Of a stretch of DNA of 64,000 nt, positions 755-56,083 are shown piece after piece. The notes under the pieces were generated by a model. The model saw nothing but the letters and a program-made list of their open reading frames with translations, was not told where the DNA came from and ran no database searches. This DNA comes from Mytilus trossulus (Eukaryota), in assembly GCF_036588685.1 (NCBI RefSeq), contig NC_086373.1, forward strand, positions 90,706,001 through 90,770,000. Reading direction: 5' to 3'. Position numbers and translations under genes: made by a program. How positions within the stretch are numbered: position 1 is the first letter of the stretch; each line of letters starts with the position of its first letter.

Positions 755-3700
755 ATGACCGAAAACAGGCCGCTTTTGAAAACACAGCAATCGGAACAAA
801 GTACTTCTGGTTGGTTCAATAACCAATTTAAAATCAGTCTTTTTGGATTAATATATGGATGCGCTATTGAAATGAGAAGTATAACGGAAACACAGTTTGT
901 GTACGCTTATTTGAAAAATCACACGAATATCAATAACACTGTTTTGGAAACGAGAGGAAACACATCAAAATATGATGAAAAATGCCTGGACAATACAACA
1001 AATACTGGTGATTATTATATACAGGGATTGGCAACAGATTGGACGTGGTATATTACACTTGTTATATATGGCATAGGACTTCCGGTTCTTGCCTTAATTG
1101 GACCACTTTCCGATAAACTGGGACGGAAACCAATTATACTGTTTAATTTAGGACTAACTGCGATATCATTTTCCGTCCGTACTTATATTGTGTATGCAGA
1201 TCTTAATTTATATTGGTATTTATTGATGTGTTGCATTGAAGGTTTCGCTGGAAGTCACTATGCATATCATTTTGCATGTTGCTCAATATTGGCGAATTGT
1301 ACGAAAGCCGGTAAACAACGACCGTTTGCATTTGCACTTTACGAATCTATGATGGGATTAGGACTATGTCTTTCTGAAATAGGAACAGGATATCTTATTA
1401 AACTTCTAGGTTTCACATATCCATATATAATATCTACTGGTTTAAACATTATTGTTTTCATATCGTTTTGTACTTTTCAAGAGGAAAACACTGAGAAAGA
1501 GAAAACATATACACTTTCTGCTAAAACAAAAGGAGTGTATGTTTTCTGTACAAAAAAGGAATCCCTGTCAAGAAACGTCAGCTGGAAGATTTTTTCCATA
1601 ACCTTTTTAATTTTTTTCATTTACCATTTTCCTGTTTCTTCGTTCGGCTCCATTCGGACATTATATACATTAGGAATACCTTTCTGTTGGTCACCAGTAC
1701 ATATAGGATGGTATGCTGCTGGAGTTGATGTCGTTCAGTACGTGTTTAGTGTTGTGATCCTCAAATGTCTTCTGATGGTCACCAAAGATGAAACGATAAC
1801 GATTTTAGGTTTTGTTTCTAACATTGCTTTTTTGGTAATGTTCGGAATGTTCGCAGCTGATTGGTTTATATACACAGGTAAGACGCTCATAGTGTCTCAT
1901 AAAATATTATCAGTTCTAACTATTAATGAGCGAAAAAGACATTTTAACTAGAGTTTATGTGTTTATTTATATTCAAAATATTTCAGTTATTTATAGATCA
2001 TACCGAAATATGAACTGACCACAACTAAATAGTAAAGTAGTGCTGAAGTGGAGTTAAACACCAATCAATCTACCATTAATAGGCATTACCTGCGAAGTTG
2101 GCAATATAAAAATATGATTTTGTGTTTTAAACATTTAAAAAAGCTGAAATTTAATATGCCATTTCGCTATAGTCGGCCTGTTTTTGTTCAATTTTGTTAA
2201 CATTTGTCAATAATGTATATTGGTTTGCAAGTCAATAATTCCACTCAGTTAAATCCATATCCATGCGAACTTCAACTTAACCCTCAACTTGGATGGGCTT
2301 ACGTATTGGTTCAATATGTTTGGTTATTAAAAAGAAAAGAATGGAAACACTGAATAAATGAAACAAGGCTGCCACAGGGAAGATCACTTTCGTAATCTGA
2401 TTCTGCACAGATAAAAAATCAATCAAATAGAAAAAAAACCCGATGGTTAACATATACTCTAAATCTATGACATGAAATCAAACAGACCCAGTAAAATCGT
2501 TATTAAACGATTTATTCGTGCTTCCTTATGTATTCCTGTTTATATATTTCTTTACATACAAAATTTAAGAAAATATATAGTGTTCATATAGAACCATGTT
2601 AAAAGCTAAGTACCATCTACACTCTCTGTTCTCATTTTCATTATTTGTTTTAATTCTGCATTATTAAATGATTAATTGATTTGATAATGTTTGAGTTTTG
2701 ACTACTGTGTTTTCCTATTTTAGCCACAGCTATTGGAGTAATTCGAATTTTACCAAATCCTCTATTGAAATCATTTTTGTCCAGGATGGTTTTAAGAGAC
2801 AAACAAGGTATGTGCAAAGGGGGTCTCATTAGCGGGTTCTGATCCCGGATCCCGCTTACTGCTTTGTCCGATTCCCGTATCCGGCTTACACTTTGTATGT
2901 AAGCAATTCTCATTTTTTTGTAATTTCCCGTGTTCCACTAGACTTCATTTCCCGTTTCCACGGTACAAACAAATTTACTTTCACGTGTCACGCTTACAAA
3001 AAATCGACAATCCCGCGTCACGCTTAGACCCCAACGAGACTCGCTTCAAAGTATGTTTGTATGAGGTAATACTGTAGGTCTGAACCCATAAAAATAAGCT
3101 CATAGAGTAAAATAATTCAAGGAATACACAAATAAAATAACCTTCCCATATTTTTAAAAGAAGAAACAGGGTCAACAAATTCATTATATGAAAGTTACAG
3201 TTTTCTTCAAATTCAAAATAATGTCATGAAGAACATTTCGTTGATTTTTTAACGTTTATCACTGAACTGTTGAAATTTACTACATAAACAAGCTTCAAAC
3301 AAAACATTTTCAGTTTCAATTTACTTTGACTCTTTCCCTTTAATGAGTATATGTAATTGAGTTAGTAATCAAAGTAAAACTAGAAAATCAGCAACGGAAT
3401 ACACAATTGTAACAATAAGTGTCAAATGATTAAAATCTTTTCTATAACTTCAAATATTCTACTTAATTGTAAGTATTTAAAAATCTCGAATTTCCTCTCG
3501 AAAGACCCTTCAGAAAAAATAAACTAATAAAATACGTACACAAACATGAAATTAGTTTTTGTTTTATTCATAGGAACCCTTTTCTCTAATATATACCTTA
3601 TAGAAGCAACATGCAGGCTTGGTGGTGTAACAGTATTTAACAACATATACCATCAAACACGACCAATATTCAAAGGAATGGTTTTCATTATTATGGCCAG

Positions 3701-4601
3701 TTTTAGTACGTGTGCTGTAGTTCTTTTCATGTGAGTTTAAAAAAAAAGAGTGGTATAGTCCTTGTTTTTCATTTTAACATTGTCGTCGTGATCTTCATTT
3801 AAACATTCTTTAAGAAAACGGAAATAAAATTATGAAATAAATTCGCATCAAATATTTGCCATCAATAATGTAATCAATCAAACATTTCGGATTAGAAGTA
3901 TCATATTTTCAGAGTTAAACTCATTGGAATTAAATTATTGCTCTGTGCCTAACTATTTCAAACTAGCATTTACGAAGTGGTATGTGGAAGGAGCGCAGGT
4001 TTAAAAAAATGGTCGAAACCATTAAAATTGAACAATCTATGATAAAATTAGAGATATGGAAAAGTTAAGGTAAGATTTAAAAAAAAATCCAATTCAATTT
4101 AAGAAAACGTCAATATTCATGTCAATTGCACTTATCATGTTTATTATAAGTACACTATCTTTCAGATGCACACAGCGTACCAGAACTCAGACAGAACAAC
4201 AGGAAATTGTAGTTGATGAACCAACAGTACAAAACCAAAAAGATGTCAAAGAATCCCAAAACAATGAATATATAACAACGTAATGGGGCTATTGACATTG
4301 AGATATATTTGTAATTAATAAAGCAGACAAGGGTTACTTGCGTTAAATATACAGTCAAATCTGCTTTAGATACCACATGTATTGAGCAAAAAAACTGTGA
4401 AACTTTTTTGCTCTCCTAAAGTGGTCTCTTTAAACAGGTTTCACTGTACTTTTATTGCATAGCAGACTTTCAAGATATGACTTTGAAAATGTCAAAATGT
4501 TTCAGTTTTCATATAAATAAAAATTCCATTAAAATCAATTTTATTTCGATGGATGAGGATGTTTGTATTTTAGCATACTAGTACTCAGGAAAAGAGCATA
4601 G
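755..4601 (+). CDS. SLC46-family (PCFT/SLC46A3-like) MFS transporter, paralogue 1; exons 755-1877, 2724-2807, 3574-3730, terminal exon 4574-4601 (alternative 4701-4737)
   Basis: Hydrophobic multi-TM ORF with GPLSDKLGRKP (MFS motif A) and PFCW. GT-AG exons of 84 nt (..LLKSFLSRMVLRDKQG) and 157 nt (TLFSNIY..FNNIY..KGMVF) keep the frame and match the SLC46 C-terminal helices. The terminal exon is ambiguous because a 120-bp hairpin overlaps it. Confidence 0.85.
2821..3042 (-). mobile_element. ~220-bp MITE (TIR GGGTCTCATTGGGG-like), copy 1
   Basis: Ends gggtctcatt...ccaacgagactc. It is the reverse complement of the element at 40861-41083 and lies 13 nt downstream of the exon 2 donor. Confidence 0.75.
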
Positions 4602-55700: not shown

Positions 55701-56083
55701 CCTATAAAATGTATCTAAATTAACAATGACACACATAGTCACTTACTTTAGACTTAGAGTTCTTTGCGCTCATTATTGTATTTAAAGAAGAGCGTTCAAG
55801 TGCTCAAGAAAAAATAAACATATCCTGCTACTCGTGCGATATCGGTGGTGATATATGCCTGTCTTGATTTAAAGACACATGTTTTTTTTTATCTTTTATA
55901 TTTTCTGAACTACATGTCGAGTATGATTTGAGATTTTAGATCAATGAAATATCTATTTAATTTATTTCTAATTTCAGATTCTTTACCTGTATCTATGGAT
56001 GTGATCCAGCACAGAAATTATGGCAAAAACACAAAATTGACGTAGAAATAAAAAACGAAAATAAAAACGTGGTTAACTCTTAA
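52783..56083 (+). CDS. SLC46-family MFS transporter, paralogue 8, most divergent (~491 aa); exons 52783-53911, 54306-54389, 55119-55275, 55978-56083
   Basis: GPMTDRIGRKF and WPFCWSSERIGWY motifs; conserved exon sizes and phases; TAA at 56081-56083 followed by AATAAA signals at about 56122 and 56146. Confidence 0.9.

Follow-up and report, generated by a model that had tools for sequence, protein, structure and literature searches.

We analysed a stretch of 64,000 nucleotides of Mytilus trossulus DNA (contig NC_086373.1, positions 90,706,001 to 90,770,000 of the forward strand; hereafter the window, with coordinates counted from its first letter) and found that it carries a tandem array of eight intact genes, g1 to g8, for strongly diverged transporters of the SLC46 family. 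On balance, we think it probable that the encoded proteins are endolysosomal, proton-coupled exporters that function in the manner of SLC46A3, with each paralogue adapted to different digestion products. A preliminary description of this DNA had reported the array together with a ninth relic copy and had read it as a candidate endolysosomal repertoire for sampling ligands, for example microbial or dietary breakdown products. Its observation is confirmed, and its interpretation is partly supported. To that description we add an estimate of selection, a test of the predicted pockets, a paired loss of gate residues in g8, and a shared-exon arrangement upstream of g1.

Using open reading frames and similarity across the whole window, we delineated eight co-oriented genes with four exons each and open frames, extending from the first ATG at 755 to the last stop at 56083. 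In six-frame translation, they appeared as eight plus-strand frames of 374 to 410 codons spanning 731 to 53976, and the MFS_1 domain was matched in all six of the eight frames that were scanned. The layout is the same in every gene, with an exon 1 of 1084 to 1168 nt, an exon 2 of 84 nt, an exon 3 of 157 nt (160 nt in g7), and a short tail exon. The 84-nt exon 2 presumably resembles exon 3 of human SLC46A1. Exons 1 to 3 have GT-AG donors and acceptors, phases 1, 1, and 2, and no internal stop in 8/8 genes, while the tail exons were located by similarity, which is the sole evidence for those of g1 and g6. The spliced models are 470 to 512 amino acids (aa) long and share 30.0 to 47.1% pairwise identity, with the exception of g6 and g7 (61.4%). 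Database proteins labelled M. trossulus match several models without a difference, namely P0282, P0294, and P0297 over the full length of g3, g4, and g5, respectively, and P0216, a database model of 455 aa, over its own length in g8. The g2 model has the length of the database models P0306 and P0311. The relic between g6 and g7 is also real; an exon 1 remnant, the last 72 nt (E 5e-5), is followed by an exon 2 with a frameshift (E 2e-9), and no exon 3 was found by similarity at the locus. The array extends past the window with two further first exons, u1 and u2, at 5.0 and 7.5 kb upstream, giving 10 first exons, and the assembly holds a second, inverted copy of the locus (the mirror copy, described below), which also contains the relic.

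Based on sequence profiles and a predicted fold, g1 to g8 are assigned to SLC46 (the PCFT/HCP family of the MFS) as 12-helix transporters, in agreement with the preliminary description. In a profile search of solved structures, PCFT (SLC46A1, the proton-coupled folate transporter) was matched at E 3e-110 versus 2e-9 for the next MFS protein, and in single-sequence searches with g3 and two orthologues, chicken PCFT was the sole solved-structure match. The predicted model of the g3 orthologue P0001 (predicted local distance difference test score, 89.5) likewise had PCFT as its top Foldseek match (E 3e-17, next 1e-9; template modeling scores, 0.77/0.86), and it contains helix breaks at 160-161 and 379-383 in transmembrane helices (TM) 4 and 10. 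Discontinuous TM4 and TM10 are a feature of PCFT (PMC7612623). Counted on the profile alignment, both cysteines of the pair linking the TM1-2 and TM7-8 loops (chicken C72 and C306) are present in 8/8 genes, and the TM1-2 loop carries two to four N-glycan sequons in each. Thus, the array proteins share with PCFT (PDB 7BC6 and 7BC7) the broken helices, the loop cysteines, the glycosylated TM1-2 loop and, in 7/8, the intracellular gate pair E193-R384; they differ from it in that R156-D164, H289-N350, and F290 are not kept and in that identity is 22%.

The genes are already annotated in RefSeq/GenBank under the automatic labels "proton-coupled folate transporter-like" (PCFT-like) or "SLC46A3-like" (for example, XP_063414661, XP_063419635, XP_063419636, CAG2234792-5, VDI66375-81, and CAC5425586-97). 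That they are folate transporters, as the former label implies, is hardly credible. PCFT is the sole close solved relative, and an acid is found at the E193 position in 7/8, an acid at E407 in 7/8 (g2 has Ala), and an aromatic residue at Y323 in 7/8. However, the residues with which PCFT grips folate (roles according to PMC8978580 and PMC7612623) are missing, with R156, D164, N98, and F290 each kept in 0/8 and H289 in only g4. An Asn at N350 is found in g1 alone, so that the H289-N350 extracellular gate pair is kept in 0/8. The R156-D164 pair is missing in all 148 family representatives, which indicates that its loss is not specific to the array and that the "PCFT-like" label is poor for the whole invertebrate set. 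The intracellular gate pair E193-R384, taken as D/E with K/R, is kept in 7/8 genes and by 55 of 66 full-length relatives. In g8, the most divergent copy of the array, both sides are replaced (Thr199 and Asn392), and g8 orthologues, where covered, have likewise lost both; both sides are lost in 2 of the 66 relatives, one of which is a g8 orthologue.

All eight proteins carry a [DE]xxxL[LIVM] motif within their first 12 residues, and seven have the strict L[LI] ending; the final residue of the g2 motif is noncanonical. In 5,000 shuffles, the mean was 0.49 and the maximum 4/8 proteins with a motif. Acidic dileucine motifs bind AP-1, AP-2, and AP-3 (PMC5297682). These data suggest that an N-terminal acidic dileucine signal likely directs the array products to endosomes and lysosomes, and the preliminary idea of an endolysosomal location is strengthened to that extent. 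Two points weigh against this reading. First, the motif was found in 85 of 147 family representatives versus 13 expected, which indicates that it is real but inherited and family-wide. Second, dileucine motifs are also signals for endocytosis at the plasma membrane. PCFT acts at the plasma membrane, whereas the array proteins are predicted to be endolysosomal. With SLC46A3 they share the family, the predicted lysosomal location, and folate as an unlikely substrate. The signals differ, in that human SLC46A3 uses a C-terminal YELL (PMC9896951), while in the array a YxxPhi signal is absent from the last 40 residues in 7/8 proteins and g2 has YAIL right after TM12.

The genes, including u1 and u2, are open in both assembled copies, between which the 10 genes have 80.5 nonsynonymous and 141.5 synonymous differences. 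The resulting ratio of the proportions of these differences (pN/pS) is 0.16 (binomial p 1e-40), with values per gene of 0.00 to 0.48. Thus, the array genes are under purifying selection, and the claim that the copies are intact stands. Among paralogues, synonymous sites are near saturation (pS 0.50 to 0.78 in three pairs).

In phylogenetic analyses, the 10 genes formed a single clade, with a FastTree support of 0.994 (215 of 221 rows, P0008, P0014, P0047, P0048, P0102, and P0185 having been dropped and the C26 duplicates, the C7 copy, and the frameshifted gene at C3:92.717 Mb left out of the input) and an SH-aLRT support, the only support computed for this tree, of 100 in a quick search on 61 rows. 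The named sequences within this clade are exclusively from Mytilus, and named proteins of scallop, pearl oyster, clam, abalone, and limpet are outside. Among the database matches that carried names, none was labelled as vertebrate or insect. We infer that the array is confined to mytilids. Approximately 12 further records with ~50 to 65% identity are within the clade. Several of them pair with single paralogues, and members of the g3, g4, and g5 groups are recorded on contigs of one and the same length (96,241 bases); the array therefore predates the genus Mytilus. The Mytilus database models represent the same genes or one-to-one orthologues (80 to 100% identical, order matching), and accession order tracks gene order in M. 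coruscus, M. edulis, and M. galloprovincialis. Accordingly, the array has a single origin, and its gene order is conserved among Mytilus species.

To compare predicted pockets, we used the 14 ligand-contact or gate positions of PCFT with pemetrexed, transferred by profile alignment. Among g1 to g8, these positions are 30% identical versus 41% for the cavity helices (p 0.03) and 48% for nonaliphatic cavity columns (p 0.003); three other mussel SLC46 clades displayed no such gap (0.45/0.44, 0.62/0.64, and 0.36/0.37). Within a paralogue, by contrast, comparison with the mirror copy and with orthologues from Mytilus showed variation in just 3 of 140 gene-by-site pocket cells. In columns with a paralogue identity of 0.35 or less, 1 of 100 pocket cells varies versus 152 of 1,297 and 34 of 349 control cells (permutation p 0.0002 and 0.002; 0.00 to 0.018 across five thresholds). 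Even g7, the fastest-changing copy, which is 80% identical to its orthologues, has an unchanged pocket signature (14/14 positions in P0320 and 13/13 in P0058). At the S411 position, g1 to g8 have R, A, S, R, V, T, Q, and R, i.e., the charge differs among paralogues. Pocket positions that are specific to a paralogue and yet fixed support different substrates, and the substrate diversification suggested earlier fits this pattern.

Several observations weigh against this conclusion. Seven pairs of distant orthologues (51 to 65% identical) gave no significant result in the pocket test (p 0.33), and in these pairs the background was better conserved (0.63) than the contact positions (0.52), which indicates that pockets also drift over longer times. 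When fewer orthologues were included, p under the strictest control was 0.015 to 0.11. Moreover, the thresholds were picked after the data were seen, the positions are borrowed from PCFT, the register of TM7 is uncertain, and the mirror copy was the sole orthologue in the comparison for g1, g6, and u2. Taken together, the data give moderate support, at the level of sequence, to the notion that different pockets are maintained under selection. Alternatively, all copies may have one broad substrate range, with retention by tissue, stage, or dose and with the pocket differences representing old, fixed, tolerated drift. This alternative is in line with the broad specificity of SLC46A3 (PMC9896951), with distant orthologues, in which pocket residues change no less often than the remaining helix positions, and with the highly dynamic developmental profile of one M. 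galloprovincialis gene labelled SLC46A3, from this array or another locus (bioRxiv 2023.07.27.550798). Signatures that are fixed per paralogue across Mytilus species, even in g7, and the differing pocket charge are difficult to reconcile with a shared range, which we regard as rather unlikely.

Metals are stored in the digestive lysosomes of mussels, and some copies may handle metals such as copper there, as is reported for mouse SLC46A3 and C. elegans SLCR-46.1. In g4, the positions of R156, H289, F290, and N350 are occupied by Cys168, His306, Cys307, and Cys371 in the predicted pocket, all of which are kept in 4/4 close orthologues; H289 and N350 are adjacent in PCFT (PMC8978580), and SLCR-46.1 is lysosomal and raises lysosomal copper (PMC13216265). 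However, human SLC46A3 displayed neither copper inhibition nor copper uptake in a direct assay (PMC9896951), and the last of the g4 cysteines is a Tyr in the distant g4 relative P0005. We consider a role in metal handling quite improbable.

In the interpretation of the preliminary description, the copies would serve cytosolic sensors by sampling muropeptides and cyclic dinucleotides in phagolysosomes. Muropeptide sensing is supported by CG8046 in Drosophila and by SLC46A2/A3 in mammals, SLC46A2 imports cGAMP (PMC11509177), and the lysosome-type motif in 8/8 proteins is compatible with such a role. Like the array genes, CG8046 and SLCR-46.1 belong to SLC46 and are from invertebrates; the former is linked to muropeptide sensing and the latter to lysosomal copper. 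None of the tests run linked the array to immunity; every gene has a low pN/pS between the two assembled copies, and the order of the genes is the same in different species. In both respects the array is unlike immune families with fast turnover. Similarly, no test run supported the proposed link to filter feeding; SLC46 is multicopy elsewhere in this genome and in snails that do not filter feed. We consider an immune function distinctly unlikely.

The preliminary description had also set the array against the three SLC46 genes of vertebrates. The multiplicity holds, but the surprise was overstated. This genome alone has at least 27 distinct SLC46-like loci in several clusters, vent snails are reported to have an expanded SLC46 family (bioRxiv 2025.05.21.655246), grazing snails have several SLC46 genes among the database matches, and the size of the arthropod family differs by order (PMC7487162). 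At E 1e-30 or better, 981 clusters at 50% identity match. In the literature searched, which did not extend to subscription journals and supplements, we found no work devoted to the array or to an expansion of SLC46 in Mytilus. We conclude that the array is an ordinary lineage expansion that is already annotated in databases.

Based on these considerations, we return to endolysosomal export as the favoured function. Human SLC46A3 resides in lysosomes, where it exports steroid conjugates and bile acids in a proton-coupled manner and with broad specificity (PMC9896951). The products of an old tandem array of eight intact 12-helix SLC46 genes (10 first exons including the two upstream) would be routed by their predicted N-terminal dileucine signal to endosomes and lysosomes, where the proton gradient would power the export of small organic digestion products to the cytosol. 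Proton coupling is suggested by the intracellular gate pair, and g8, with this pair lost, may be uncoupled from protons or differently gated. Each paralogue would take a different substrate, as the pocket pattern suggests, and the substrate class may, by analogy, be amphipathic dietary and xenobiotic catabolites of the SLC46A3 type in cells that digest food intracellularly.

The coordinates of the array genes and of other features are listed in Table 1.

Table 1. Features of the SLC46 array and its surroundings
Feature	Coordinates	Strand	Exons or parts	Length (aa)	N-terminal motif	Remarks
Two upstream first exons	L003:2459-3551 and L003:4960-6079					5.0-7.5 kb upstream of window
g1	755..4283	+	755-1877, 2724-2807, 3574-3730, 4166-4283	493	ENRPLL	Tail exon by similarity only
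g2	6892..10000	+	6892-7975, 8484-8567, 9203-9359, 9913-10000	470	EKTSLV
g3	12328..16752	+	12328-13450, 14336-14419, 15988-16144, 16656-16752	486	ETKPLL
26-bp tandem repeat	14707-15798					Intronic or intergenic
g4	18663..22718	+	18663-19830, 20016-20099, 22013-22169, 22589-22718	512	EKEGLL
85-bp tandem repeat	21400..22076	+	8 units			Seven extra copies of g4 exon 3 acceptor and 5' half, preceding true exon
g5	25736..32635	+	25736-26882, 27235-27318, 31918-32074, 32518-32635	501	ERLPLI
g6	36298..43750	+	36298-37438, 38044-38127, 39401-39557, 43660-43750	490	ENEPLL	Tail exon by similarity only (E 1e-4)
61-bp tandem repeat	38629-39328					Intronic or intergenic
Relic ninth copy	44315..44760	+	44315-44386 (exon 1 remnant), 44671-44760 (frameshifted exon 2)			Between g6 and g7
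g7	47681..51217	+	47681-48812, 49532-49615, 50294-50453, 51127-51217	488	ENKPLL
g8	52783..56083	+	52783-53911, 54306-54389, 55119-55275, 55978-56083	491	EKESLI
Cys-rich peptide gene	60804-60842 and 61387-61671		60804-60842, 61387-61671			Small secreted peptide, two exons
355-bp tandem repeat	62152-63171					Intronic or intergenic
DDE_3 match	63424-63882					E 0.0008, under cut-off; likely Tc1/mariner relic

The seven extra g4 exon 3 acceptors are, by their sequence, decoy acceptors. The mirror copy contains one partial g4 exon 3 decoy, and the database model P0291 (441 aa) splices into this partial decoy and stops within TM11. Exon 4 of g4 contains an in-frame 33-bp repeat, of which the mirror copy has one additional unit. 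Downstream of g8 lies a separate gene for a small secreted Cys-rich peptide with a single locus per copy; it matches Pfam Prokineticin at E 0.018, under the cut-off, and a protein search with its Cys-rich exon gave no match. The database models P0214, P0218, and P0219 fuse g8 to this gene. We rejected such a fusion because, in both copies, the Cys-rich exon is paired with a separate signal-peptide exon that carries a consensus donor.

A search of the genome gave 41 SLC46-like matches out of 47 candidates, i.e., 10 at this locus (2 of them upstream of the window), 10 in the mirror copy (C1:81.10-81.18 Mb), 3 on C14, 3 near-duplicates on C26, 12 on C3, 1 on C8, and 1 broken copy on C7. The mirror copy is 9.5 Mb distant and inverted, comprises the whole array and its flanks (C1:81.07-81.21 Mb; L006-L019), and is 88 to 99% identical across 114 kb of compared sequence, in which large indels occur. 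Collinearity persists 0.5 Mb away at 98 to 99%, as judged from the first of two flank probes searched out of six; the second, which is mostly repeats, was uninformative. Its near-identity and collinearity, together with the similar C14/C26 pair, support that the mirror copy is probably an uncollapsed second haplotype, i.e., an allele; the alternative is a recent segmental duplication. Because collinearity extends over at least 0.5 Mb at this identity, a count of twenty genes was rejected. The copy on C7 at 2.80 Mb (L020:4611-5841 and L040:512-1193) is a dispersed g7-like copy that is ~75% identical, with introns present and exons 1 and 3 broken. On C3 at 63.78 Mb (L039:4966-6066), a slow-evolving, single-copy SLC46-like gene has close orthologues from octopus to oyster; in contrast to the fast arrays, it keeps the H289 and E193 positions, and the dileucine motif is absent.

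Upstream of the window, the first exon of u1 is open and 90 to 94% identical in other Mytilus species, and no exons 2 to 4 of its own were found in either assembled copy. In the RefSeq isoform models P0049 and P0198, an exon 1 with 94% identity to u1 is joined to the last exons of u2 (97%). From these sequences, u1 and u2 may share last exons in a UGT1-like cassette.

A more far-reaching possibility, which we consider unlikely, is that the locus forms a lysosomal exit repertoire of ~10 transporters with fixed, paralogue-specific pockets. Each would free a different class of algal or bacterial breakdown products, including at least one cell wall fragment or cyclic dinucleotide for cytosolic sensors. 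Such a repertoire would include a proton-uncoupled g8 and the UGT1-like cassette, in which two first exons (TM1-9) would share last exons (TM10-12).

Different groups have credited SLC46A3 with substrates as varied as steroid conjugates, drug catabolites, muropeptides, and copper. Ten natural variants of one scaffold, with distinct fixed pockets and a removable sorting signal, would provide a panel for the question of what determines specificity in the SLC46 family. The array may also be useful for understanding how mussels free food and pollutants from lysosomes.

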